Below are positions 8,957 to 64,000 of a DNA stretch of 64,000 nucleotides, one piece after another. The notes beneath the pieces are model-generated. The model searched no databases, was not told the origin of the DNA, and saw only the letters and a program-made list of their open reading frames with translations. The DNA is from a virus. Position numbers and translations under genes: made by a program. The stretch lies in the IMG/VR virus record IMGVR_UViG_3300030387_000070; one strand, given 5' to 3'. Position 1 is the stretch's first letter. Each line of letters begins with the position of its first letter.

Positions 8957-9139
8957 ATGCTCAAATATGGAAATATAACGTGTAAACGTTGTGGTATTAC
9001 ATGGTATGGACCAAAATGCGGAAAGCTTTACTGTGAAGAGTGTCGTAAGGTTGTAAACAACGAGAAGAGTCTCAAATGGTACAGAAGTAATAGAGAGCTT
9101 GTTGCAAGGAATCGTGCAGAGAGAAAGGCAATGAGGTGA
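8957..9139 (+). CDS. zinc-ribbon small protein
   Basis: Contains CxxC...CxxC (CKRCG...CEEC). Confidence 0.35.
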   Translation: MLKYGNITCKRCGITWYGPKCGKLYCEECRKVVNNEKSLKWYRSNRELVARNRAERKAMR

Positions 9140-9144
9140 ATGTG

Positions 9145-9963
9145 ATGAGTGCAGTTGTTGAAAGAAAAGAAGAACAGATATCTAAATTGATCTATTTTAA
9201 TCCGAAGCCTTCTGTTCCGGCTAAAAAACGTGGTGTTACAAAAAGTAAGCAGAAGCGCAAGCGTAATATTTCTCCAATTAGAAGCTTGGATGATGTTCAA
9301 ATGATTTCGGAATACTTCTGGGATAAAAAGCAATATCGCAATTGGTGTCTATTTAATGTAGGTATTGCAACTGGTTTGCGTGCTAGTGATTTGCTCAAAT
9401 TGAAGGTTTCCGATATGTCTTATTGCCTTTATAATGGAAAGATTGAAGTGGTTGAAGACGCTGGAGTTTGCATCGTTGAAGAAAAAACATCTAAATATCG
9501 TGAAATCATTCTTACTCCAGAAGCGAGAGATATCGTTGAAACATACATTAAGATTGCGAATCTTGGATATGACGATTGGATGTTTCCGTCTCGGCAGGGG
9601 AGTTGGAAAAAGTCATTGAGGACAAATGGTGGAGATGGGAAAACTGGTATTCCTCATATTGCAGAACCCAAAAAGGCCGGTGATCCTATTGATGTTGATT
9701 CTTTTGCTCGTATCCTTCGTAATGCTGGCAGAGATTTGGGTCTTAATTACAAGATTGCATCTCATTCTTGCCGTAAGACATTTGGTTATCGTGAGATGTG
9801 TCTTAATAAGGATGACAACCAGGCATTGTCTTGGATTCAGGGTCAGTTGAATCATAGTAGTCAGGACATTACATTACGGTACGTTGGTTTTGATGAGGAT
9901 AAGGCAAAAGAATATTATAAGAAGACTTTTTATGGTGTGAATACACACAGCTTGGAAGACTGA
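9145..9963 (+). CDS. tyrosine site-specific recombinase (phage integrase family catalytic domain)
   Basis: Catalytic residues recognised by eye: Arg box GLRASDLLKLKV, HSCRKTFG (His-x-x-Arg) and LNHSSQDITLRYV (His plus the nucleophilic Tyr). Start is uncertain between GTG 9136, GTG 9142 and ATG 9145. Confidence 0.65.
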   Translation: MSAVVERKEEQISKLIYFNPKPSVPAKKRGVTKSKQKRKRNISPIRSLDDVQMISEYFWDKKQYRNWCLFNVGIATGLRASDLLKLKVSDMSYCLYNGKIEVVEDAGVCIVEEKTSKYREIILTPEARDIVETYIKIANLGYDDWMFPSRQGSWKKSLRTNGGDGKTGIPHIAEPKKAGDPIDVDSFARILRNAGRDLGLNYKIASHSCRKTFGYREMCLNKDDNQALSWIQGQLNHSSQDITLRYVGFDEDKAKEYYKKTFYGVNTHSLED

Positions 9964-14776: not shown

Positions 14777-15103
14777 ATGAGTGAGAAAAAGGTTTTGGAA
14801 ATTATACAGGTTGAGAACTTTTTGAAGTACATAAGAAAAAAGCGAGTGTGGGTTTGTTTTATTTGCAATGGTGTGGATGTTCACATGATCTGCAAAAAGA
14901 TGGATGACATTGGTGTAGAGACACATGGGATTGTCAAAGGCATTGAATTTTTTGGAAACGAAAGTCATGTTGAGTTGCGGCAAGAATGCTACGAAGTAAG
15001 GAGAGTTGAGTTTAGGCCGGGCGATAAAGAGAAAGCGTATGAGATGATCTTCAATAACACCAGCGTGTTTGTGTCAGAGAATCCCGAGTTGTACGGGCAC
15101 TAA
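14777..15103 (+). CDS. hypothetical protein
   Basis: ORF downstream of the promoter. Confidence 0.35.
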   Translation: MSEKKVLEIIQVENFLKYIRKKRVWVCFICNGVDVHMICKKMDDIGVETHGIVKGIEFFGNESHVELRQECYEVRRVEFRPGDKEKAYEMIFNNTSVFVSENPELYGH

Positions 15104-15194: not shown

Positions 15195-15614
15195 ATGGAC
15201 AACAATATTGACCCAAAGGTCGGAGAGGTTTGGTTGGTCGATTTGTCAAATGCGACAGGTCATCAGCAGCGCGGTATTCGACCGTTCGTTGTGACGAGCA
15301 ACAATAAGCGCAACTTCTTTAGCCCCACAATCAAAGGGAATCCATTGTCTTCCAGAATATACAAGCGCTCTCCGGTTCATGTTCTACTTTCAAAGGAAGA
15401 TTGTGATTTCTTAGAAGTTGACAGTATCGTTCTTTGTGAAGAGACTGACACGCTTAACAAAGGACAGTTCATCAAAAAACTTGGTGTCTTGTCGGAACGT
15501 CAGATGAATATGATTGCAATGGCAAGATGTAAGGATGAACCGTTTTTGCTCGCAGCATTCCTGAGCGGCGTACAACATACTATGGAATTTCAGAATTTTG
15601 CCGCATTTGCTTGA
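15195..15614 (+). CDS. MazF/PemK-family endoribonuclease toxin-like protein
   Basis: RBS GAGGAGAAAG upstream; the N-terminus VGEVWLVDLSNATGHQQRGIRPFVVTSNN and overall pattern match the PemK/MazF fold; no MazE-like antitoxin seen upstream. Confidence 0.65.
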   Translation: MDNNIDPKVGEVWLVDLSNATGHQQRGIRPFVVTSNNKRNFFSPTIKGNPLSSRIYKRSPVHVLLSKEDCDFLEVDSIVLCEETDTLNKGQFIKKLGVLSERQMNMIAMARCKDEPFLLAAFLSGVQHTMEFQNFAAFA

Positions 15615-15667: not shown

Positions 15668-16594
15668 ATGCTTACTGAAGAAAAAATCAACGCTTTTGCC
15701 GAAAGGTATTCTGATAAAAGCGGTAAGTTTGTTGTATCGACACTTAACAATGTTATGATCTATGAGGCCGAGTGTGGGTATGAGTTGTTTGATTTTACAA
15801 AAAATGATTTTGTAAAGATGTTTGCAAAATACAATTGGGTGAACTCAAGTCGTTCATTTAGAAATGTGAAATCAATAATCACTGGCTACATCAAAAGTGA
15901 AGATCGTACAAGTTTGTATGACTTGGCTGAATTTTCGGAAAATGACGTAAGTTCAGACGATATGTATGCAGACAAGTATTTTGCATCGGTTGATGAATTT
16001 GTTGACTTATTAAATAAATACGAAGAGCCATATCAGATTCGTATGAACGTGATTGCTGTATTATACTGGATCGGACTTACCGCTGGTGAAATTGTTAATC
16101 TAACAATCAATGATGTTGATTTTGAATCTCGTACTGTTCTCAATAGGACTGGTATTGATGCGAGGTTGATGGATATCATCAAGCAGTGTTATGAAATGAA
16201 ACAATATGATGCTCCCAACATGGGAGGATACAGAACGTTTTATGTCATAAACGGTGATTACATCCTTCGCAAAACAGAGGACAGGACTGGAGCAGACAGT
16301 GACCCAAAGATATCTACAAATACAATTCATACCTATTTTATGAGATTGAATGATATTCTCGAAAAAAGAGGTTGTTCTAAGATTTTGGACCAAAGACATT
16401 TAACAAGAAACAACGAGTATATCAAGGTTTATGACTATTGCAAAACTCATCCAGAATTTAATCTTGTAGAACTTAGCTTCGGAAATGGTAAAGATCCTCT
16501 TGCAGACATTATCGGAAGAAAGTGTAGCAAGGTAGCCTATATTAGCTTCCGGCAAGGATACAAGGGCTGGATTGAGTATTTCCATAAAAATTAA
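15668..16594 (+). CDS. hypothetical protein (308 aa)
   Basis: RBS AAGGAG upstream. Confidence 0.4.
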   Translation: MLTEEKINAFAERYSDKSGKFVVSTLNNVMIYEAECGYELFDFTKNDFVKMFAKYNWVNSSRSFRNVKSIITGYIKSEDRTSLYDLAEFSENDVSSDDMYADKYFASVDEFVDLLNKYEEPYQIRMNVIAVLYWIGLTAGEIVNLTINDVDFESRTVLNRTGIDARLMDIIKQCYEMKQYDAPNMGGYRTFYVINGDYILRKTEDRTGADSDPKISTNTIHTYFMRLNDILEKRGCSKILDQRHLTRNNEYIKVYDYCKTHPEFNLVELSFGNGKDPLADIIGRKCSKVAYISFRQGYKGWIEYFHKN

Positions 16595-16670: not shown

Positions 16671-18884
16671 ATGAGAACGCTTTTGCTGTTCCGTGGAGCA
16701 CCAGGTTGTGGGAAGTCCACCTATATTAAAGAGCATAATCTTGAGCAGTATGTATTGAATGCTGATACACTTCGACTTATGTGCCAGAGCGCACAGGAAA
16801 CACCTGCCGGGCGGATGGAGATCTCTCCGCAGAATGATGATGTTGTATGGGAGATGCTTTTCAAACTGCTTGAGGTGCGTATGAGTCATGGCGAGTTTAC
16901 CGTGATTGATGCAACGAATTCCAAGACGGTCGAAATGAATCGTTATAAGAATCTTGCAAAACAGTATCGTTATCGGATGTATGTTATTGACATGACGGAC
17001 CTTCCGATTGAGGAATGCAAACGAAGAAACGCTCAGAGAGAATGGCTGAATCGAGTTCCTGAAGCGGCCATTGATAAGATGTACGCTCGGTTTGCTACTC
17101 AAAAAGTTCCTTCTGGTGTGACAGTTCTTCCTTCTACTACGGATGTGATGTCCGATTTGAACTACTGTCCGAATGACTTCAACCAGTGGAAGAAGATCCA
17201 TATCATCGGTGATGTTCATGGCTGTTATACTTGTTTAAGTGAATACCTTGGTGAGATGAAGGACGACGAACTGTATATCTTCGTTGGTGATTATCTCGAT
17301 CGTGGCATCGAAAACGTTGAGGTATTCAAGTTCTTGTGTGATGTTGTAAATAACAACCGCAAGAATGTGATCCTTTTGGAGGGCAATCATGAGTGTTGGC
17401 TAAACAAGTGGGGGCATGATGAACCGGTTCAGAGTGAAGAGTTTGCAAACTACACTCGTCCGCAGCTCTTTAAAGCCGGTATTGACAAGAACACTGCTCG
17501 TAAGATCTATTCCAGAGTAGGCCAATGTGCCTACTTTGAGTATGATGGGAAGCGGTATTTCGTGAGCCACGGTGGTTTGAGTTATCTGCCTTATTTTCTT
17601 CCTTTCGTATCTGCTGATCAGATGATTAAAGGTGTAGGTCGCTATCCTGATATGCTAACCGTGGCTGAGTCTTGGGAAAAATCGATGCCGGATAGCTACA
17701 TTCAGATCTTCGGCCATCGAAATGTGCAGGATGTTCCTATTGATATGGGGCATCGGTGCTACAATCTCGAAGGAAAAATCGAGTTTGGTGGATATCTCCG
17801 TTGCGTTGAACTTGAACACGGTCAGTCAATCAAATGTGTAGAAACCAAGAACGATGTGTTCCGAAAAGAGGAGCCAAAGACTGAAACTGCCGTTGAAATG
17901 AAAACTGAGTTCGATAACGCAGAACTTGTTAGTAAGATGCGTCAAAGCAAATATGTGTTTGAGAAGCGATTCGGAGATATTTCTTCTTTCAACTTCTCTC
18001 GTGAAGCATTTTATAAGAAGCACTGGGATGAGGTTTCTACCAAAGCAAGGGGATTGTTCATTAACACAAAGACGAATAAGATTGTAGCTCGAAGCTATGA
18101 TAAGTTCTTTGCGGTTGATGAGCGGAATGAAACGAGAATTGGAAACCTACAGAACACTTTGAAGTTCCCAGTGACTGCATATCTAAAAGAGAACGGATTT
18201 CTTGGTATCATTTCGTATGATGCAGAACAGGATGGTCTGTTCATTGCAAGTAAATCCACTCCTGAAGGGCCTTTTGCAGATATGTTCCGAAAGATTATTA
18301 TGGATACTACTTCCGATGAAGATCGTAAGAATCTGAAGGAGGTTGCCAAGGAGCATGGCTCCATCATCTTTGAGGTTATTGATCCTGTGAATGATGCTCA
18401 TATCATAGAATACAAGAAACCGCACATTGTTTTGCTGGATGTTGTTGCAAACGATATGAATTTCAGTGTGATAGATTATGATGACTTGAAACGTGTCGCA
18501 GAAAAGTGTCATCTGCAGATTAAGGAGAAGGTTAAAACCTTTGAGAACTGGAGTGAATTCTATCCTTGGTATGAGGAAGTCATGAATGAGAACTATCTGT
18601 ACCATGACATCGAGCATGTTGAAGGCTTTGTTCTGAGAGATAGTAACAACTTTATGTTCAAGTTAAAGCTTCCTTATTATAAGCATTGGAAGTTCCTGCG
18701 TGGTGTTATGAAGAGCGTCCAGAAACGTGGCTATTACGAAAACACCGCCAAGCTGTTTACGGCTGAAGATAATTTGTTCTATGGTTGGATGCGTGAGCAA
18801 CGAGAGAAAGATCAAGAGGCGTTCAGCAAGAAGGGAATCATTCAGCTGCGAAATGAGTTCTATGCAAGTCAGCAGAAGAGTTGA
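16671..18884 (+). CDS. polynucleotide kinase-phosphatase-ligase (Pnkp-like RNA repair enzyme): P-loop kinase, calcineurin-like phosphoesterase and nucleotidyltransferase (ligase-like) domains
   Basis: Walker A GAPGCGKST at the N-terminus; metallophosphoesterase motifs GDVHG, GDYLDRG and GNHE; C-terminal nucleotidyltransferase motifs KENG (KxNG), EGFVLR and KLKLPYYK. Confidence 0.65.
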   Translation: MRTLLLFRGAPGCGKSTYIKEHNLEQYVLNADTLRLMCQSAQETPAGRMEISPQNDDVVWEMLFKLLEVRMSHGEFTVIDATNSKTVEMNRYKNLAKQYRYRMYVIDMTDLPIEECKRRNAQREWLNRVPEAAIDKMYARFATQKVPSGVTVLPSTTDVMSDLNYCPNDFNQWKKIHIIGDVHGCYTCLSEYLGEMKDDELYIFVGDYLDRGIENVEVFKFLCDVVNNNRKNVILLEGNHECWLNKWGHDEPVQSEEFANYTRPQLFKAGIDKNTARKIYSRVGQCAYFEYDGKRYFVSHGGLSYLPYFLPFVSADQMIKGVGRYPDMLTVAESWEKSMPDSYIQIFGHRNVQDVPIDMGHRCYNLEGKIEFGGYLRCVELEHGQSIKCVETKNDVFRKEEPKTETAVEMKTEFDNAELVSKMRQSKYVFEKRFGDISSFNFSREAFYKKHWDEVSTKARGLFINTKTNKIVARSYDKFFAVDERNETRIGNLQNTLKFPVTAYLKENGFLGIISYDAEQDGLFIASKSTPEGPFADMFRKIIMDTTSDEDRKNLKEVAKEHGSIIFEVIDPVNDAHIIEYKKPHIVLLDVVANDMNFSVIDYDDLKRVAEKCHLQIKEKVKTFENWSEFYPWYEEVMNENYLYHDIEHVEGFVLRDSNNFMFKLKLPYYKHWKFLRGVMKSVQKRGYYENTAKLFTAEDNLFYGWMREQREKDQEAFSKKGIIQLRNEFYASQQKS

Positions 18885-19001
18885 GTTAAAATAGACATTT
18901 TATCGTGATTTTCGTTAAAATAATTAACGAAGTATCGTGATATTTATTCCTCCGAAAATGCCATGCGTGGGGCTGACAGCCGGGAAAGACCGGCGATATA
19001 T

Positions 19002-19086
19002 GCCAAGGTGCTGCAAATGGGAGACAGGGCGAGCCCAAACCTCGCTGTGGAAACACATGCGGTTTCGAATACCGTCCTTGGCACCA
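19002..19086 (+). tRNA. tRNA-Leu(CAA), type II, CCA encoded
   Basis: Hand-folded: acceptor GCCAAGG/CCTTGGC, U8, T-loop TTCGAAT, long variable arm, anticodon loop CCCAAAC with an unusual C33, discriminator A73. Confidence 0.55.
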
Positions 19087-19114
19087 GATAATTTTATGAA
19101 GAAAGGATGATTGC

Positions 19115-19798
19115 ATGGTTAATAGGGCAGAAGATCATATTGGTGATGTCTTTGATTTGTTTGAGGTGATTGATGTTATTCGAGATGAAAATAATATTCC
19201 ATCTTACAAATGTCGATGTAAAGAATGTGGATGGACAGGGCTAAAAAATATAGCTCAGGCGAGAGCGGTTAAAGTGTGTCGGCATAAACAATCGAGTGGC
19301 GATTATAGAAATTTTTCTACACGGTGGAAAAACAAAAGAATCGGACGAATCTTTCATGGAATGAAAGCAAGATGCTATGATGTTGATGATAAAAACTATA
19401 TAACGTATGGCATGAAAGGAATTTGTGTTTATCAAGAATGGTTGGATAATCCAAAGTCATTTGAAGAGTGGTCGTTGAAAAATGGATACAAAGATAGTTT
19501 GACAATCGATAGAATTGATTCGACAAAAGATTACTGTCCTGATAATTGCAGATGGATATCATTGGAAGATAATTCAAAATATAAATCCACAACTCGAATG
19601 TTAGAAGTAGATGGTGAAATACATACGGGACGTGATTGGGCGGCAGAATTAGGGCTTGGAACAAACACGATAAATAAATATGTAAGAAGATACGGAGAAG
19701 ATAATACAAAACAATTTATAAGAAGAGTATTAAAGGACCCGGATAAAGTGAATTCTCGACAAGGGAAACAAACTATCTATAATCTTTACATGAACTAA
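19115..19798 (+). CDS. HNH homing endonuclease (HNH_3-type)
   Basis: HNH signature IDRIDSTKDYCPDNCRWISLEDN; low GC relative to neighbours; sits between tRNA genes. Confidence 0.55.
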   Translation: MVNRAEDHIGDVFDLFEVIDVIRDENNIPSYKCRCKECGWTGLKNIAQARAVKVCRHKQSSGDYRNFSTRWKNKRIGRIFHGMKARCYDVDDKNYITYGMKGICVYQEWLDNPKSFEEWSLKNGYKDSLTIDRIDSTKDYCPDNCRWISLEDNSKYKSTTRMLEVDGEIHTGRDWAAELGLGTNTINKYVRRYGEDNTKQFIRRVLKDPDKVNSRQGKQTIYNLYMN

Positions 19799-19805
19799 AT
19801 TGAAA

Positions 19806-19847
19806 TGGCCCAGTGTAAAAACTGAGTACATTGGGCCAAATATTTAT
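19806..19847 (+). terminator. rho-independent terminator (TGGCCCA...TGGGCCA plus AT-rich tail)
   Basis: 7-bp inverted repeat at 19806-19812 and 19832-19838 after the HNH gene. Confidence 0.45.
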
Positions 19848-19851
19848 ATGA

Positions 19852-19935
19852 GCACCCGTGGTGAAATTGGCAACCACGATGGACTTAAAATCCATTCCCG
19901 GTAACGGGTTGCGAGTCCGAGTCTCGCCGGGTGCA
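19852..19935 (+). tRNA. tRNA-Leu(TAA), type II
   Basis: Acceptor GCACCCG/CGGGTGC, anticodon loop CTTAAAA, 15-nt variable arm, A73. Confidence 0.65.
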
Positions 19936-19940
19936 TATTT

Positions 19941-20016
19941 CTGGGCGTAGCGAAGTTGGCATCGCACCTGTTTTGGGAACAGGGGACCGCAAGTTCAAAT
20001 CTTGTCGCTCAGACCA
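19941..20016 (+). tRNA. tRNA-Pro(TGG), CCA encoded
   Basis: Anticodon loop TTTGGGA, T-loop TTCAAAT, acceptor with one G-U pair, ends ACCA. Confidence 0.65.
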
Positions 20017-20023
20017 CTACGAG

Positions 20024-20111
20024 GATTCGCCAAGTTGGTAAGGCAGCGGAATTTGACTCCGCCAGCGCTGAACAAGCGGTCACAGGTTCGAGTCCTGTAT
20101 CCTCGGCTTAT
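20024..20111 (+). tRNA. anomalous type-II tRNA with anticodon TTG (Ser-like G73 body)
   Basis: Acceptor CGAGGAT/ATCCTCG, U8, D-arm GCC-AAGTTGGTAA-GGC, anticodon arm GCGGA-ATTTGAC-TCCGC, 19-nt variable arm, T-loop TTCGAGT, discriminator G. Confidence 0.45.
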
Positions 20112-20113
20112 AT

Positions 20114-20198
20114 GCGGGTATGGTGTAACTGGCAGCCACGTCAGATTTAGGATCTGATGCCGAAAGGCGTGAGGGATCGTGCCCCTCTACCCGTACCA
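20114..20198 (+). tRNA. tRNA-Leu(TAG), type II, CCA encoded
   Basis: Anticodon arm TCAGA-TTTAGGA-TCTGA, 13-nt variable arm, A73, CCA present. Confidence 0.6.
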
Positions 20199-20298
20199 CG
20201 GTCATAGAATGGTTGCGTACCGTTTGTTGATCTCCTTTACTATTATTCCCGGCTCGCCAGTGATGGTGCAGTAGTGCTTTGTAAGCTGGGTTTTCATG

Positions 20299-20372
20299 CA
20301 GCGGTCGTACAACGGCTAGTACATCAGCCTTCCAAGCTGAGGATGAGGTTTCGACTACCTTTCGCTGCTCCA
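20299..20372 (+). tRNA. tRNA-Gly(TCC), CCA encoded
   Basis: Acceptor GCAGCGG/TCGCTGC, anticodon loop CTTCCAA, T-loop TTCGACT, ends TCCA. Confidence 0.6.
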
Positions 20373-20560
20373 ATCTTGTATGGGTAGGATCTTTAGCGGT
20401 CAGATCCAGCCGCGCCTGTGCAAGATACCACCCCGAAAGGGGCGAGATATAGGAAATGTGCATCGCTGTTATTCCTTCCTCGTCTATATGATATAGATGC
20501 AATAGTGTTTTATAAGGAAGGTCCCCAGTTGAATAGTTGCAGCTGTTTGACTGGTAATAT

Positions 20561-20634
20561 GGGATAGTAGCTCAGTTGGTCAGAGCTGGCGGCTCATAAC
20601 CGCTTGGTCGCGAGTTCAAATCTTGCCTGTCCCA
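20561..20634 (+). tRNA. tRNA-Met(CAT), elongator-like
   Basis: Acceptor GGGATAG, D-arm GCTC-AGTTGGTCA-GAGC, anticodon loop CTCATAA, T-loop TTCAAAT; the 1-72 pair is formed, so not an initiator. Confidence 0.6.
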
Positions 20635-20742
20635 CTAACCCGATAGGGTGAATACATAGAATTTGCTAGAAATTTTGTTTTATGGGCGAATAAATAATAT
20701 GACGTTGATACGTCTATTATTTTTCGCTAATTTTTAAAGTTT

Positions 20743-20780: not shown

Positions 20781-21503
20781 GTGAAACATTATGGAAGTAT
20801 TTGCGAGATTGATGGTTCTAAGATTGAGCCTGTCTCGTGTATCACTGGTGGTTCACCTTGTTAGCCAAGACCTTTCTATTGCCGGCAAGCGGGCAGGTTT
20901 GGCTGGAGAACGGTCTGGTCTATTTATGGAAATGATTCGTGTGATAAAGGAGATGAGGGAGGCCACCAATGGAGAGTATCCAAAATTTGCAATCTGGGAA
21001 AACGTCCCAGGAGCCTTCTCTTCCAACAAAGGAGAAGACTTTAGATGTGTCTTGGAAGAATTTGCACGCATTGTCGAACCAAGTGTTTCAGTTCCTCGAC
21101 CTTCGGGAAGAGAATGTAAGTGGGCAAAAGCTGGAGCAATCGCCGGAAACGGATGGTCCTTGGCGTGGAGATTATTCGACGCTAGTGGTTGGGGTGTTCC
21201 CCAGCGTAGAAAACGTCTCGCGCTTGTCATGGACCTTAGAGGACAATGTGCCGGAAAAGTATTATTTGAGCAAACGGGCGTGTCAGGGGATCTTGATAAG
21301 AGCGTCAAGACGTGGAAAACCATTGCCCGACCTTCTGAAGGATGCACTGCAGGAGATGATTCATTGGTGGGAGATGAAAGATCCTACACTTTGAAGATTC
21401 GTTCTGGCTGCGCAGGGGGGGTAAAGGAGCACTCGTGCAGAATGAATTGAGTGCGACTCTCTCCACTTTGCAAGATCAGACTTTGTTCTGTGTAAAGCAT
21501 TAA
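20781..21503 (+). pseudogene. N-terminal part of a DNA (cytosine-5) methyltransferase (motifs IV, VI, VIII) split across three reading frames
   Basis: GTG 20781 after AAAGGAGG. Frame 0 reads VKHYGSICEIDGSKIEPVSCITGGSPC then TAG at 20853-20855. Frame 1 continues (S)QDLSIAGKR...ENVPG...QRRKRLALV...SYTLKIRSGCAGG. At the G7 run 21415-21421, frame 0 reads GKGALVQNELSATLSTLQDQTLFCVKH and stops at TAA 21501. Confidence 0.55.
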
Positions 21504-21515
21504 GGAGGGAACGGA

Positions 21516-22262
21516 TTGGAAAAAGAAACCAGTTTACATAATTTAAAACAAAATATTTCCACAGCGGTATTTGAAAGCCATAGTCAGGATGCTCGATACA
21601 CTCAGCAAGGTAATACAAGCCCAGCTTGTACAGCTCAATGGGGTACTGGTGGTAATAATATGCCGCTTGTCGCTGAAAAGAAAGCCTTTGCTATGCAGCG
21701 TATTGGCGAATATAAGGAAAGCGAACAGGCCAGCACAATGAAATCTCGTGATTATAAAGATGCAACTGATCTTGTAGTTGAAGAGAAAGAGGTGAAATGT
21801 GCTGGGTTTCCACTTGGATTTAGAGCAGAAAATACGAAATGCTACGATGAAGTGGCTACTACGCTTTGCAATGGTACGCGGCCTGGATTTACTACTGGAT
21901 GTGTTCTCAATTGGATTGTTCGCCGCTTGACTCCTGTTGAGTGTGAACGGTTACAGGGTTTTCCTGATGGATGGACCGATATTGGCGAGTGGGTTGACGA
22001 AAATGGTAAAAAGCACAAGCCAGCCGATTCTCCTCGGTACAAGGCGCTCGGCAATTCGATTGCTTTGCCTCAGTGGTATTGGATTTGCCAGAAGATGAAA
22101 CCGTATATTGGTGAAAATCCTACGCTTGGCAGTCTTTTCGATGGAATCGGTGGCTTTCCGCTTGTCTTTGAAAGTACGTATGGTGATGGTACTGCTATCT
22201 GGGGATCTGAAATTGAATCGTTTTGTGTTGCGGTGACAAAGAAGCATTTTCCAGAAGACTAA
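21516..22262 (+). CDS. C-terminal part of a C5 methyltransferase (TRD, motif IX, motif X) fused to MTase motifs I and II
   Basis: RBS AAGGAGG 7 nt before TTG 21516. Contains RRLTPVECERLQGFPDGWT (motif IX), YKALGNSIALP (motif X), then SLFDGIGGFPL (motif I) and WGSEIE (motif II) before the stop. Confidence 0.55.
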   Translation: MEKETSLHNLKQNISTAVFESHSQDARYTQQGNTSPACTAQWGTGGNNMPLVAEKKAFAMQRIGEYKESEQASTMKSRDYKDATDLVVEEKEVKCAGFPLGFRAENTKCYDEVATTLCNGTRPGFTTGCVLNWIVRRLTPVECERLQGFPDGWTDIGEWVDENGKKHKPADSPRYKALGNSIALPQWYWICQKMKPYIGENPTLGSLFDGIGGFPLVFESTYGDGTAIWGSEIESFCVAVTKKHFPED

Positions 22263-59982: not shown

Positions 59983-60810
59983 ATGATTATTGATTGCAAA
60001 TCTATTGCACAAGATATCAAAGATAAAATCAAGAATATTATCGCAGAGGCCGATTACACTCCTGTTTTACATATTTATCAAGTAGGGGATAATCCTGCGT
60101 CTAATGCTTATATTAGAGGTAAATTGCGTGACTGTGAAGAGGTGGGGATCGAAGTAGAACTTATTAAACTGCCAGAAAATATTACTGAAGATGAATTGAA
60201 TAACAAGATCTTAGAAGATTATAATTGGGAATATGTGAACGGTATCATTGTTCAGCTTCCGTTGCCAAAACATATCAATCCTAAAAATATCTACATTCCA
60301 GACGCAGTTGATGTTGATGGATTTAATTCTACATCCAAATTTCAGCCTTGCACTCCGCTGGGCGTTATGAAGATTTTTGACTCCATCGGTTACGATCTGG
60401 ATGGCAAGAATGTGCTTGTGTGTGGTCAATCTGATATCGTAGGTCGTCCGTTGGTCAATATGCTGATTAAGCGGCACTGTAATGTAATCTCTGTGAATAG
60501 TACGGGTTCCGCCATGAAAGCCACTGCCATCGGATTTGGAATAGTCAATGTTATTATTTCCGCCGTTGGTAAGCGTGACTTTATTTCGACGTTTGATTTA
60601 TTTGATACGGATGTTTGCATCGACGTTGGTATCAACTATGACGAGAACGGAAAGCAGCACGGCGATTGTACTGATGCTGTTTATGATATGAAGGATGTCA
60701 AAGTAACACCTCGTATCGGCGGAGTTGGCCTTATGACTCGCGCTATGCTCTTATATAATGTATGTGTGGCGAAATACGGGGCAGAGAAGATGGAAGAGGT
60801 GATTGAATGA
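59983..60810 (+). CDS. folD: bifunctional methylenetetrahydrofolate dehydrogenase/cyclohydrolase FolD
   Basis: RBS AAAGGAGG upstream; FolD pattern VQLPLPKHI...DAVDVDGF...QPCTPLGV...GKNVLVCGQSDIVGRPL...NVISVNSTGS. Confidence 0.8.
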   Translation: MIIDCKSIAQDIKDKIKNIIAEADYTPVLHIYQVGDNPASNAYIRGKLRDCEEVGIEVELIKLPENITEDELNNKILEDYNWEYVNGIIVQLPLPKHINPKNIYIPDAVDVDGFNSTSKFQPCTPLGVMKIFDSIGYDLDGKNVLVCGQSDIVGRPLVNMLIKRHCNVISVNSTGSAMKATAIGFGIVNVIISAVGKRDFISTFDLFDTDVCIDVGINYDENGKQHGDCTDAVYDMKDVKVTPRIGGVGLMTRAMLLYNVCVAKYGAEKMEEVIE

Positions 60811-61037
60811 AAGAACAGAAAATTCCGCTTGAACAGCAACTTATATATAACGTAGAAGAAGTAGCAACCCTCTTGAAAACTACACGCCCTGTGGTATACT
60901 CTTTAATAGAAAAGGGTTATCTTCCGAGCATTGTTCTTGGCAGACGGAAAGTGACGAGGAAGGCACTACTTACATTTCTTGATAAGAACGAGAACACTAA
61001 TTTTAGCCAAATCTTGAAATCAAAACAACTATCGTAA
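60807..61037 (+). CDS. excisionase-family HTH DNA-binding protein (Xis-like)
   Basis: Helix-turn-helix YNVEEVATLLKTTRPVVYSLIEKGYLPSIVLGRR; last phage gene before the GC shift. Confidence 0.5.
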   Translation: MKEQKIPLEQQLIYNVEEVATLLKTTRPVVYSLIEKGYLPSIVLGRRKVTRKALLTFLDKNENTNFSQILKSKQLS

Positions 61038-61049
61038 GCCATTTGGTCG

Positions 61050-61100
61050 TGCCCACAAAATTGCCCACATTTTATTTTCTGTGGGCAAACCGTGGGCAAA
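61050..61100. repeat. paired inverted repeats at the prophage right boundary: TGCCCACA x2 (61050, 61062) facing GTGGGCAAA x2 (61081, 61092)
   Basis: Seen directly; 11-12 bp spacing between direct copies. Confidence 0.55.
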
Positions 61101-61149
61101 TCGACAATTTGTTTCCAAAGAATGACGTACACACGTCAAAACTTTATAG

Positions 61150-61224
61150 ATGGCAAAGGACGAAGCCCGTCACGGCCGTGGCTTCGAGGGCCTGCTGAAG
61201 CGCTACTTCAACACCGAAGTCTGA
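61150..61224 (+). other. 24-codon ORF MAKDEARHGRGFEGLLKRYFNTEV, possible displaced 3' end of the host integration-target gene
   Basis: High GC, and followed directly by a strong host-type terminator. Confidence 0.3.
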
Positions 61225-61261
61225 TAAGGGTTCCCCGGTTATCTATGCTGCCCGCTGCAAG

Positions 61262-61300
61262 GACATTCCGCCTTGCAGCGGGCTTTTTGTGTTTCAATCG
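61262..61300 (+). terminator. rho-independent terminator (CCCGCTGCAAGG...CCTTGCAGCGGG plus TTTTT)
   Basis: 12-bp GC-rich stem followed by a T5 run. Confidence 0.65.
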
Positions 61301-61390
61301 TGGTGACGACTTCTTTCGTAAAAATGGAATCCTAAAGATGCGCAAAGCGAACGCGGTGCGCATTTAAAATCGTCCCGCTAAAAGAGGCAG

Positions 61391-61431
61391 CTGCGCAGAA
61401 TTTCGCACAGCTGCCTCTTTTGTGGTGGCTG
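61391..61431 (-). terminator. rho-independent terminator for copA (bidirectional hairpin AGAGGCAGCTGCGC...GCACAGCTGCCTCT)
   Basis: Stem and T-run immediately 3' of the copA stop on the minus strand. Confidence 0.6.
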
Positions 61432-61435
61432 AACC

Positions 61436-63994
61436 TTACTGGATGCCGGTAACAGGATAATCCTGTGCTTCCACGGCCTTCTTCAGCACCTCATCGTCCA
61501 CTTCGGCGTTCAGGGTAACGATGGCGGTACCGGCTTCGTGGCTGACAACAGCCTCGTCCACCTGCGGCAGAGCCTCCAAAGCCTTCTTGACGCGGGCTTC
61601 ACAGTGATGGCACATCATACCTTCTACGGTCAGGGTCTTTTTCATAGCAATCTTCTCCTTGTAAGTTGTATCTTCCTCCGCTGCGGGCTGCACAAGGGCA
61701 GCGGGCAGGGCAGGGACGTGTTTGGGCGGGTGGTCATGTTTTGCGCTGTGCAGGTCAAACAGGTTCAGCCGCAAGGCGTTGCTCACCACGCAGAAGCTGG
61801 AAAGGCTCATGGCAGCTGCGCCGAACATGGGGTTCAGCGTCAGTCCCAATGGAATGAACACACCGGCTGCCAGCGGGATGCCGATGATGTTATAGATGAA
61901 CGCCCAGAACAGGTTTTCGTGGATGTTGCGCAGGGCAGCACGGCTCAGCCGGATGGCGGCGGGCACGTCCGACAGCTTGGAGTTCATCAGTACCACGTCT
62001 GCAGCGTCAATGGCTACGTCTGTGCCTGCGCCAATGGCAATGCCGGTGTCAGCGCGGGTCAGGGCAGGAGCATCGTTGATGCCGTCGCCCACCATAGCTA
62101 CCTTGCCGTACTTTTGCAGCTGCCGGATGACGGCCTCCTTGCCCTCGGGCAGCACTCCCGCGATCACCTCGTCCACCCCGGCCTGTCGGCCAATGGCCTC
62201 GGCAGTGCGCTGGTTGTCGCCGGTCAGCATCACGACCCGGATACCCATATTTCGCAGCTCCCGGATGGCCTGCGGGCTGTCCTCCTTGATGGTATCTGCC
62301 ACTGCGATAACGCCCAGCAAACGACCTGCGCCACCAAAGAACAGGGGCGTCTTACCCTGTGCAGCCAGCGCGGCGGCTTCGGCTTGCAGCGCAGCGGGGA
62401 TGGCGACCTTTGCGCCGATAAAGGCCGCATTGCCGCCAAAGATCTCCTTGCCTTCCAGCGTGGCGGTAAGGCCGTTGCCCGGCAGGGCGGTAAAATCGGT
62501 AACAGAGGGCAGCTCCAGCTGCTTTTCCTCCGCATAGGCCAGCACTGCCCGCGCCAACGGGTGCTCGCTGCGGCCCTCCAGCGCGGCGGCCAGCGTGAGC
62601 AGCTCGGTCTCAGTCACGCCCGCAGCGGGCAGAAGGTCGGTGACGGTAGGTTCGCCGCAGGTGATTGTGCCGGTCTTGTCCAGCGCTACGATGCGGGTGC
62701 GTCCGGCTTCTTCCAGCGCCGCAGCGGTCTTGAACAGGATGCCGTTCTTCGCACCAAGGCCGTTGCCCACCATAATAGCCACCGGCGTTGCCAGACCCAG
62801 CGCACAGGGGCAGCTGATGACCAGCACCGAGATGCCCCGCGCCAGCGCGTAGCCCACATCCCGCCCCAGCAGCAGCCAGACAAGGGTGGTGACCACCGCA
62901 ATGCTGATGACCGCAGGCACGAAAAAGCCGGATACGGTATCTGCGATCTTTGCAATGGGGGCTTTGGTGGCGGCGGCATCGCTGACCATGCGGATGATCT
63001 GCGCCAGCGTGGTGTCCTCGCCTACGCGGGTAGCGCGGCACTGCAAATAGCCGGACTGGTTGGTGGTGGCGGCGCTTACCTTATCGCCCACGGCCTTGTC
63101 CACCGGGATGCTTTCGCCGGTCAGGGCGCTCTCGTTCACGGCGCTGCTGCCCTCCAGCACAATGCCGTCCACCGGGATGTTCTCGCCCGGACGCACCACA
63201 AAGATGTCCTCTTTCTGCACCTGCTCAATGGGCACGGTCACCTCGGCACCGTCCCGCAGCAGGGTGGCGGTTTTGGGGGCTAGCTTCATCAGGCTTTTGA
63301 GCGCATCGGTGGTCTTGCCCTTGGAGCGTGCCTCCAGCATTTTGCCCACCGTGATGAGGGTCAAAATCATGGCGGCAGACTCAAAATAGAACTCCATCAT
63401 GTAGTGCATGACTAGTTCCTCGTTGCCGTGTAGCTGCGCATCGGTCATGGCAAACAGGGCGTAGGTGCTCCATACAAAGCTTGCCATCGAGCCCATAGCC
63501 ACCAGCGTATCCATGTTGGGGGAGCGGTGCACCAGCCCCTTGAAGCCGTTGATGAAAAATTTCTGGTTGATCACCATCACGATGCCCGCCAGCAGCAGCT
63601 GTACCAGCCCCATGGCAATGTGGTTGCCGTCAAACCAGCGGGGCAGCGGCCAGCCCCACATCATGTGCCCCATGGAAAAGTACATCAGCACCAGCAAAAA
63701 GCCCAGCGAGGCGATAAGCCGCCGCTTTAGCTTGGGTGTTTCGTGGTCGGCCAGTGCGTCCAGCTCTGCGCTGGTACTGGCAGCGGCAGCAGCGGTCTTT
63801 TTAGGGCTTGCACCGTAACCGGCCTGCTCTACGGCACGGATAATGGCGGAATCTTCTGCTGTGCCCTCCACCCCCATGGAGTTTGTCAGCAGGCTTACCG
63901 AACAGCCGGTAACGCCCGGCACGCTCTTTACGGCCTTTTCTACCCGGGCAGAGCAGGCCGCGCAGCTCATGCCGGTAACGTTGAATTGTTCCAT
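61436..63994 (-). CDS. copA: copper-translocating P-type ATPase CopA (heavy-metal-binding domains at both termini)
   Basis: [13 protein letters not shown] and [12 protein letters not shown] metal-binding sites; CPC transduction motif [11 protein letters not shown]; DKTGT phosphorylation site; GDGINDAP; about 65% GC. Confidence 0.85.
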
Positions 63995-64000
63995 TGTTGT

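Follow-up and report, generated by a model that had tools for sequence, protein, structure and literature searches.

A seven-tRNA operon of a Faecalibacterium prophage that probably serves codon compensation, with two kinds of conserved structured RNA in its spacers

The tRNA cluster of bacteriophage T4 encodes eight tRNAs, with anticodons that include Gln-UUG, Leu-UAA, Gly-UCC, Pro-UGG and Ile-CAU, together with two small stable RNAs. T4 also encodes Pnk and Rnl1, which repair tRNA-Lys cut by PrrC. In the portion of PMC2330249 dealing with this cluster, the homing endonuclease gene segB is placed within it. Two explanations for phage tRNAs appear in excerpts of PMC10264068: one is that they compensate for differences in codon usage (Bailly-Bechet et al., 2007, as cited there), and the other draws on the healing-and-sealing repair by T4 of tRNA cut by an anticodon nuclease, which is cited in the same text. 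Here we describe a comparable operon of seven tRNA genes, at positions 19002–20635 of the 64,000-nucleotide virus record IMGVR_UViG_3300030387_000070 (the window, meaning this whole stretch). The window carries the right-hand end of a prophage of Faecalibacterium. The main role of the operon is probably codon compensation, and its spacers hold two kinds of conserved structured RNA, which are here called motif A and motif B.

The resemblance to T4 is extensive. Both phages are of low GC (guanine plus cytosine) content and have a compact tRNA operon, and the anticodons overlap with the T4 set given above. In both there is a homing endonuclease gene within the cluster (for T4, as described in that portion of PMC2330249), which here is of the HNH rather than the GIY-YIG type. 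Structured RNAs other than tRNA are co-encoded with the tRNAs in both, a likeness in gene content that implies no comparison of the T4 RNAs with motifs A and B. Both also encode a polynucleotide kinase/phosphatase and an Rnl1-type ligase, predicted here from domains. The differences are that the present phage is temperate and integrated, where T4 is virulent; that its host is a Gram-positive anaerobe; that kinase, phosphatase and ligase are fused in one protein of 737 amino acids, encoded beside the tRNAs; and that one tRNA, a tRNA-Gln, has a long variable arm.

ARAGORN was run on the whole window, and the Rfam 15 tRNA model RF00005 (gathering score 29 bits) was used alongside it. ARAGORN finds exactly seven tRNAs, all on the + strand, and none elsewhere in the 64 kb. 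All seven lie where the initial annotation, made from the sequence by eye, had drawn its cloverleaves, and the Rfam model recognises six of them at 42.6–65.7 bits. Four encode their CCA, as had been claimed: tRNA-Leu(CAA) at 19002–19086, which is a class II tRNA, tRNA-Pro(TGG) at 19941–20016 (61.5 bits), tRNA-Leu(TAG) at 20114–20198 (42.6 bits) and tRNA-Gly(TCC) at 20298–20372 (55.5 bits). The other three are tRNA-Leu(TAA) at 19852–19935 (54.8 bits), with no encoded CCA, tRNA-Gln(TTG) at 20020–20107 (51.7 bits), with a 19-nucleotide variable arm, a C1-G72 pair, G73 and no CCA, and a tRNA with anticodon CAT at 20561–20635 (65.7 bits), which ARAGORN calls Met and whose 3′ end is CTA, not CCA. 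The tRNA that the Rfam model does not report, even at an expectation value of up to 10 (E ≤ 10), is tRNA-Leu(CAA). It has an unusual C33, in the anticodon loop CCCAAAC. This gene is conserved in 10 closely related loci, with one loop substitution in 2 of the 10, and the same loop is present in 27 of the 129 Leu-CAA genes of the phage family.

The phage is one of a large family known from gut metagenomes, with contigs of roughly 50–160 kb, and more than 100 viral contigs share elements of the tRNA locus. (Loci and contigs used for comparison are numbered with the prefix L.) Across 180 related loci ARAGORN predicts 976 tRNAs, which have almost only the same seven anticodons: TCC 175, TAA 145, TAG 145, CAA 129, TGG 125, TTG 109 and CAT 107, with TAT in a further 19. 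Gene order, spacing and the tRNA bodies vary widely across these loci, and tRNA-Gly, for example, exists as two very different body alleles within the family. Given that the seven anticodons are kept in 180 loci while order, spacing and bodies differ, selection clearly acts on the decoding set.

The same ARAGORN output includes 16 calls of tRNA-His(ATG) and three of tRNA-Tyr(ATA) in the relatives. Anticodons starting with A are unusual, and these calls may be miscalls of structured elements or mutated copies.

The identity of the last tRNA affects what this set decodes. The initial annotation had taken the CAT tRNA as Met, as does ARAGORN, but tRNA-Ile2, which reads AUA, is the more likely identity. 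In the ARAGORN structure it has a G1-C72 pair, and its anticodon-stem pair 29-41 is C-G, so that the run of three G-C pairs of an initiator is missing; initiator tRNAs are well known to have three consecutive G-C pairs in the anticodon stem, among other features. These two characters argue that it is not an initiator. The same slot in two relatives (L008 and L009) holds a homologous body with anticodon TAT, and either tRNA would read AUA. Matches to the CAT tRNA occur in 5423 of 5426 complete E. coli genomes, and the sampled matches with E < 1e-5 are all annotated as tRNA-Ile; the single E. coli match inspected has the anticodon CAT, and the sequences GGCGrCTCATAAyCGCT in the anticodon arm and TGGTC in the variable loop are common to it and the phage tRNA. 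By these matches the nearest E. coli relative of the phage tRNA is the tRNA-Ile with anticodon CAT. In the phage genes ATA is enriched (5.2-fold) and ATG is not (0.8-fold). E. coli TilS recognises the pairs C4-G69/C5-G68, which the acceptor stem of the phage tRNA does not have. This tRNA is thus most likely a tRNA-Ile2 that would be modified with lysidine to read AUA, and the Met identity is judged less likely in view of the TAT anticodon in the homologous slot and the E. coli tRNA-Ile matches. The Ile2 identity helps the codon-compensation hypothesis.

The setting for codon compensation is a large difference in base composition. The contrast between a low-GC phage and a high-GC host noted in the initial annotation is borne out by measurement: the phage part of the window (1–61147) has 40.8% GC and the host part (61148–64000) 60.6%. 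Codon usage was compared between 102 phage open reading frames (ORFs; 18,338 codons) and 21 host genes (6,154 codons) from a contig with the empty integration site (L001). At third codon positions the GC content of the phage genes is 0.41, compared with 0.73 for those of the host. Each of the seven cognate codons is more frequent in the phage genes, by 2.2- to 10.2-fold. Per thousand codons, TTA is used 7.6 times in the phage and 0.6 times in the host (ratio 10.2), CCA 7.8 and 1.1 times (6.4), GGA 16.1 and 2.6 times (6.0), ATA 6.4 and 1.1 times (5.2), CAA 8.6 and 2.4 times (3.4), CTA 4.7 and 1.6 times (2.8), and TTG 16.1 and 7.3 times (2.2). In a permutation, random sets of seven were taken from the 45 codons that have a Watson-Crick partner among plausible anticodons. 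Of these sets, 0.03% reached the mean enrichment of the real seven (p ~ 3e-4) and 0.009% reached their rarity in the host (p = 9e-5).

We therefore consider that the main function of the operon is probably codon compensation, that is, the supply of decoders for UUA, UUG, CUA, CCA, CAA, GGA and AUA. This had been proposed in the initial annotation. The folds, the GC setting and the codon enrichment stand, but the set is incomplete and the CAT tRNA is probably not Met. The further statement that all seven decode codons ending in A or U needs qualification: the anticodon CAA reads UUG, a true Met tRNA would read AUG, and none of the seven is specific for codons ending in U.

Several observations weigh against this conclusion. 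No phage tRNA encoded in the window serves AGA, TCA, CGA or ACA, A-ending codons whose enrichment equals or exceeds that of the covered ones. That the host is short of decoders for the seven covered codons is presumed solely from the codon usage of the 21 host genes; no host tRNA genes were found in the scanned host flanks of L001 and L003. Simple compensation does not predict the allelic diversity of the tRNA bodies (two Gly bodies, C33 in Leu-CAA, and long arms on tRNAs for Gln and on those with anticodons CAT and TAT), and the operon adjoins a gene for a tRNA repair enzyme. As in codon-compensating phage tRNAs generally (as presented in excerpts of PMC10264068), the tRNAs match codons that the phage uses often and the host seldom, a difference that stems from a GC gap; unlike the general cases as presented there, the gap of about 20 points lies within one window, the phage is an integrated prophage, and coverage is partial, leaving AGA, TCA, CGA and ACA. 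It is well known that a phage tRNA cluster can be explained by codon usage, and the new parts here are the spacer RNAs and the long-arm tRNAs.

The repair enzyme gene, which the initial annotation missed, makes counter-defence a serious rival. It lies directly upstream of the tRNA operon (16671–18884, + strand) and encodes the 737-residue protein, a predicted tRNA repair enzyme of the Pnkp/Rnl1 type with kinase, phosphatase and RNA ligase parts. The Pfam domains are AAA_33 (residues 4–142; polynucleotide kinase), Metallophos (175–353; calcineurin-like phosphoesterase) and RNA_lig_T4_1 (458–670, E 1e-39), and the protein matches PHROG 8238, 'RNA ligase', over its full length. In the PDB its closest solved relatives are T4 Rnl1 and tRNA ligase domains. 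Among phages, the fusion is best matched, at 44% identity, in SPbeta-like Bacillus phages with genomes of 124–134 kb.

Under counter-defence, the phage tRNAs would replace host tRNAs that are cut or depleted by tRNA-targeting nucleases, and the ligase would heal and seal cut tRNAs. C33, the long arms and the divergent bodies would make the phage tRNAs poor substrates for such nucleases (anticodon nucleases and toxins of the VapC, PrrC, RloC or HEPN type), and motif A could be an acceptor-end decoy. In support of this proposal, kinase, metallophosphatase and Rnl1-type ligase are joined in one ORF directly upstream of the tRNAs, and a gene for a MazF/PemK-like endoribonuclease toxin is nearby (15195–15614, + strand; Pfam PemK_toxin, E 2e-19; PHROG 1936). 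Several alleles per slot and recurrent long-arm class I tRNAs also speak for it, as does C33 in Leu-CAA, though C33 is suggestive only. Different relatives have different modules in the place upstream of the tRNAs, a pattern common in regions of conflict with the host: in three of them (L008, L009 and L011) the ligase gene is replaced by genes for proteins of 690 amino acids (DUF8224 on record) and 127 amino acids (7307–9775 in L008), neither of which matched Pfam or PADLOC in the scans. The hypothesis has also been published already, by van den Berg et al. (2023; PMC10264068), and the present locus shares with the nuclease-evading tRNAs described there an oddity of the anticodon loop (C33), diverse bodies and a link to RNA repair.

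Against counter-defence, the anticodon set fits codons that are rare in the host and rich in the phage, which a set of nuclease targets has no reason to do. In this respect the locus differs from the mycobacteriophage case of PMC10264068: here, covered codons do differ in frequency from uncovered ones. The host nuclease is moreover hypothetical, and the neighbouring proteins gave no match to the PADLOC defence models. The link between enzyme and tRNAs is also local: the ligase homologues in SPbeta-like and Alicyclobacillus phages are not beside tRNA genes, so that no conserved association was found among them. Because of the codon fit, compensation is given a larger share than nuclease evasion, and on the contextual evidence for it counter-defence seems rather unlikely to be what the tRNAs are mainly for. 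The two are compatible and may act together. It is worth adding that the seven anticodons, kept across more than 100 related gut phage genomes with shuffled bodies, offer a clean natural system in which to separate codon supply from nuclease evasion, and an unusual one, with an integrated rather than virulent phage, a very large GC gap and a keystone gut bacterium as host.

The MazF/PemK-like gene is in the early region of the phage, 1 kb upstream of the RNA repair gene. It is preceded by an ORF of 108 amino acids (14777–15103) with no family hit, which could be an antitoxin.

The TTG tRNA had been described as odd, and it is unusual, with a length of 88 nucleotides and a variable region of 19 nucleotides that has a 4-bp stem and three unpaired bases on each side. 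The oddity can now be explained. In three relatives (L008, L009 and L014) the same slot holds an allele of 72 nucleotides with an ordinary 4-nucleotide variable loop, the same acceptor stem CGAGGAT/ATCCTCG and the same anticodon loop, and with compensatory changes in the anticodon and T stems. Given this allelic form with the same acceptor stem, the TTG tRNA of the window is read as a class I tRNA-Gln body that gained an arm. Of the characters of a class II tRNA it has the long arm with its own stem; a Leu, Ser or Tyr anticodon and a related body are absent. It is not the only such case. An independent second long-arm Gln allele, of 90 nucleotides, occurs in L025, L026, L054, L059 and L064, and there are long-arm CAT tRNAs of 90–92 nucleotides (L041, L048, L055, L058 and L085) and long-arm TAT tRNAs of 91 nucleotides (L037, L046 and L084), the last with an irregular anticodon arm, so that they may not be normal tRNAs. 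The arm stems covary between long-arm alleles, for example TGAGG..CCTCA as against TGAGAT..ATCTCA. Class I tRNAs have thus repeatedly gained long variable arms in this phage family. Literature searches on tRNA-Gln with a long variable arm and on Faecalibacterium phages found no prior description of these features.

A long arm on such a tRNA raises the question of recoding, in which the 88-nucleotide UUG tRNA would be charged by seryl-tRNA synthetase (SerRS), or by leucyl-tRNA synthetase (LeuRS), and insert a residue other than Gln at CAA. The stem of its arm, with only 4 bp and three unpaired bases on either side, is unlike that of a bacterial tRNA-Ser, and its body is homologous to the normal 72-nucleotide tRNA-Gln allele, with the same acceptor stem and anticodon loop. 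It does combine a long variable arm with a G73 discriminator, and these are the main SerRS identity elements (PMC5389517). In excerpts of PMC3333845, nematode tRNAs with a variable arm and non-Leu anticodons are described as leucine decoders of an alternative code. The codons themselves speak against recoding. In alignments with phages that have a class I Gln tRNA, the CAA sites of the window that differ are CAG in 29 of 47 cases, and the rest are almost all Lys or Arg codons, with one His, one stop and no Ser or Leu. From this substitution pattern recoding of CAA by the long-arm tRNA is highly improbable, and CAA very probably still means Gln in this phage. The nematode nev-tRNAs (as described in those excerpts of PMC3333845) and the allo-tRNAs (PMC5389517) likewise place a variable arm on a tRNA with the anticodon of a class I amino acid; unlike them, the phage tRNA has a class I tRNA-Gln body with an added arm, a normal 7/5 acceptor branch and indications of ordinary Gln decoding.

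The two spacers on either side of tRNA-Gly, 20199–20297 and 20373–20560, had been described as GC-rich and as possible sites of degenerate or intron-containing tRNAs. They are only modestly GC-rich, at 46.5% and 44.7% compared with 40.8% for the phage, and they hold structured RNA of two other kinds. Neither gives a hit to the tRNA model at E ≤ 10, and a scan found nothing credible at that threshold for any family of Rfam 15. The homologous positions in 14 related loci have no Rfam match at the gathering threshold. Weak matches to YrlA, Plastid-ycf2 and CRISPR-DR overlap the tRNAs or are at chance level. The spacers, with both motifs, are more conserved across the relatives than the flanking tRNA genes. 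Motifs A and B did not turn up in the literature searches, none of which was aimed at A or B directly.

Motif A (20373–20430, + strand) abuts the CCA of tRNA-Gly. It has a 13-bp stem, formed by positions 1–13 with 42–54 and followed by ACCA, and two covarying cap helices, 15–20/30–35 and 24–29/36–41. In related phage contigs there are 125 instances with 31 distinct sequences, and in 125 of 125 the motif follows directly after the CCA of whichever tRNA precedes it; the search pattern required the CCA, and earlier extractions without this constraint agree. In 28 distinct sequences, 97.9% of the cells (one position pair in one sequence) are paired, compared with 26–47% for slid partners. Each of the three helices has two pairs in which both partners change, six in all; G26-C39, for example, is replaced by A-U in three backgrounds, and G27-C38 is likewise replaced by A-U. 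A helix of about 12–13 bp ending in NCCA is the shape of the acceptor/T branch of a tRNA, and for this reason motif A is called tRNA-like. A point that weighs against a single fold is that the cap helices interleave without a linker, and may be alternative folds rather than one pseudoknot; the cap would be either a strained pseudoknot or two alternative states.

A search of 185,579 species genomes found motif A on one contig of a metagenome-assembled genome (MAG) only, and it is essentially phage-specific. The contig concerned (L094, CAUDRX010000058.1) is 12.5 kb long, is binned in an 'uncultured Peptococcaceae' MAG and has the same Leu/Gly tRNA array; it is probably a mis-binned phage contig.

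Motif B occurs twice, at 20236–20291, where it ends 6 nucleotides before tRNA-Gly, and at 20462–20522 (both + strand). A covariance model (R1) scores these copies at 74.4 bits (E 5e-15) and 62.8 bits (E 2.5e-12), and finds exactly two copies in the 64-kb window, everything else being at or below 10.1 bits. From its 5′ end, the motif consists of a P0 strand of 5 nucleotides, UUAUUCY, the 5′ strand of P1, a C, the P2 hairpin, GCAR, the P0′ strand of 5 nucleotides, YUUUGYA, an A, and the 3′ strand of P1. Since the strands of P0 and P1 interleave, and the P2 hairpin is inserted, motif B is an H-type pseudoknot with an inserted hairpin. In 31 distinct sequences 98.6% of the cells are paired, compared with 31–43% for slid partners, and P0, P1 and P2 covary, with 12 of 16 pairs changed on both sides. 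Such changes affect 5 of 5 pairs in P0 (alignment columns 3–7/42–46) and 4 of 7 in P1 (columns 13–19/54–60). The P0 variants include CACUA/UAGUG, GUCAA/UUGAC, CCUUA/UAAGG, GUACG/CGUGC and CUCUA/UAGAG. In both motifs many base pairs read as G-U on the + strand, consistent with RNA made in one transcript with the tRNAs.

Throughout the family motif B ends 6–8 nucleotides before the 5′ end of a Gly, Gln, Leu or other tRNA, or is followed by one more hairpin and then the tRNA. Two of its strands, UUAUUC and YUUUGUAAG, are invariant. The pyrimidine-rich loop UUAUUC faces a helix with a purine-rich strand, and a major-groove triplex is possible; the loop, being invariant, gives no covariation for this. 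The 3′ ends of MALAT1 and MEN-beta consist of a triple helix followed by the tRNA-like mascRNA, and are cut by RNase P. Motif B likewise is a compact structured element a few nucleotides upstream of an RNase P substrate, where a cut by RNase P would leave the element at the new 3′ end. Unlike those modules, with which it has no relation of sequence or family, motif B has only a possible triplex, belongs to a bacterial or phage system, and precedes a real tRNA. Hatchet, pistol, twister and HDV (hepatitis delta virus)-like ribozymes were considered for motif B and rejected on architecture and for want of an Rfam hit; hatchet, for instance, has four nested stems, P1–P4, unlike the P0/P1/P2 of motif B (PMC6561176).

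A reading of the spacers as functionless tRNA genes, decayed or interrupted by introns, is barely credible: motif A does have an acceptor-like stem followed by ACCA and stands in tandem with tRNAs, but neither spacer has a tRNA-model hit, both are better conserved than the tRNAs beside them, compensatory changes keep helices that are not those of a tRNA, including a pseudoknot, in motifs A and B, and several different tRNAs are preceded by motif B at a fixed distance.

It is possible, if somewhat doubtful as yet, that the spacers specify two classes of phage RNA not described before, each with its own function, and that the long arms on the Gln and Ile tRNAs are a third adaptation at the level of RNA. 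With the small stable RNAs of the T4 tRNA cluster as precedent, we infer that motifs A and B organise RNase P and 3′-end processing, or stabilise the processing products. Motif A may be an RNase P 'punctuation' that frees the upstream tRNA with a finished CCA, or a decoy or substrate for the enzymes of tRNA 3′ ends; motif B may stabilise an RNase P leader product in the manner of a triplex, may sense a ligand, or may be catalytic. Self-cleavage of motif B, if it occurs, would yield substrates for the adjacent kinase-phosphatase-ligase.

A mechanism combining codon compensation with these roles can be proposed. The operon would be transcribed as one or two precursors, and RNase P would cut at the 5′ end of each tRNA and at the 5′ end of motif A, where the cut would release tRNA-Gly with a finished CCA. 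Motif B would stay at the 3′ end of the leader fragments and might there add to their stability, direct processing or serve some separate function. The mature tRNAs would raise the supply of the seven scarce decoders during lytic growth. Two covarying spacer RNAs that are absent from Rfam 15, together with long-arm class I tRNAs, could bring to light new means of tRNA processing, stabilisation or protection in phages.

The signals around the genes are consistent with such an operon. A sigma-70-like promoter candidate lies before tRNA-Leu(CAA) at 18892–18921 (TAGACA-18-TAAAAT, 10 of 12 matches, a consensus match only), and another before the block of six tRNAs at 19756–19783 (TCGACA-16-TATAAT, 11 of 12 matches). 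A leader hairpin, GCCGG-GAAAGA-CCGGC (18979–18994), was read from the sequence and with RNAfold 7 nucleotides upstream of tRNA-Leu(CAA); at its position L017 has GCTCG-GAAAGA-CGAGC, with compensatory stem changes. Downstream of the last tRNA, a terminator scan predicts an intrinsic terminator at 20685–20727, with a stem at 20701–20714 and then a T run, and the RNAfold z-score for 20636–20730 is −6.0. On this evidence transcription of the operon appears to start from sigma-70-like promoters and to end at an intrinsic terminator. All these features are on the + strand.

Between the first and second tRNAs lies the gene for the HNH homing endonuclease (19115–19798, + strand), which matches PHROG 3377 (E 1e-37) and PHROG 374 and has no Pfam match. 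The gap between Leu-CAA and Leu-TAA is 765 nucleotides in the window and only 81–199 nucleotides in many relatives, which have no endonuclease ORF there. The gene is therefore taken to be an optional insertion, with a putative cleavage activity.

Three further hairpins were found in the spacers, all on the + strand. The first, in the 5′ part of spacer 1 (20200–20232), is a minimum free energy structure from RNAfold, and its sequence is invariant in six aligned loci. The second, CCCC-GAAA-GGGG (20431–20442; read from the sequence and with RNAfold), comes directly after motif A, as it always does in the relatives, where there is also a CCCCC..UGUGGGG variant. The third, with a 13-bp stem (RNAfold), lies between the second copy of motif B and the last tRNA (20525–20554); L014 has a different sequence at this position that, by eye, is also a hairpin.

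Just upstream of the first copy of motif B, at 20229–20240, is the sequence GAUCUCCUUUAC, and the variants GAACUCCUUUG and ACCUCCUUUCU (the latter in L017) recur there in relatives. It resembles the anti-Shine-Dalgarno 3′ end of 16S rRNA, GAUCACCUCCUUU.

Alignment with the empty site (L001) places the prophage/host junction (attR side) at 61147/61148, inside a rubrerythrin ORF. To the right of about 61148 the window matches that site at 100% identity and contains the last ~26 codons of the rubrerythrin gene and copA (61436–63994, − strand). Phage-free metagenome contigs with an identical CopA have an intact rubrerythrin gene of 183 amino acids beside copA. Given that the host side equals the empty site and that rubrerythrin is intact there, this is a real integration junction, and an assembly chimera as the cause of the jump in GC content is ruled out. 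The EF-Tu and rubrerythrin of the empty-site contigs are named Faecalibacterium (F. prausnitzii) in public sources. GC skew is positive throughout the phage part (1 to ~61147), and the ORFs taken as phage genes lie on the + strand, as does every gene called in the related loci. Several phage genes resemble those of SPbeta-like Bacillus phages. The window thus derives from a large temperate phage with SPbeta-like genes, integrated in the rubrerythrin gene of a Faecalibacterium with a local GC content of about 60%. This prophage may be a distant SPbeta-like large temperate phage. A protein of the YorF family is on record in one relative (L012).

Some minor observations concern the ends and the interior of the prophage. 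The rubrerythrin protein cluster includes a variant of 152 amino acids, seen on 61 contigs; this may represent the other junction, where the gene would be truncated. At the right prophage end (61050–61100) there are repeated GTGGGCAA/TTGCCCAC motifs that resemble recombinase arm sites. The last large phage gene (59983–60810) encodes a FolD-like methylene-tetrahydrofolate dehydrogenase/cyclohydrolase with both Pfam domains, a possible auxiliary metabolic gene; it is followed by a small ORF (60808–61038) that looks like a helix-turn-helix or excisionase protein. Two small tyrosine-recombinase-like ORFs lie in the prophage interior, far from the junction in the window: 9136–9963 (275 amino acids, Phage_integrase) and 15668–16594 (308 amino acids, weak MrpR/integrase matches). 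Downstream of the tRNA operon, ORFs 20791–21450 and 21516–22262 match positions 72–131 and 252–322, respectively, of a C5 cytosine DNA methylase profile. Relatives have a single methylase gene of 440–481 amino acids at that position, and the gene in the window may be split or decayed. Finally, two related phage contigs carry, within a few kb of their tRNA arrays, a full-length transfer-messenger RNA (96 bits) and a twister ribozyme of type P5, whose 46.8 bits exceed the gathering score, at L039 8577–8963 and L058 1675–1765.

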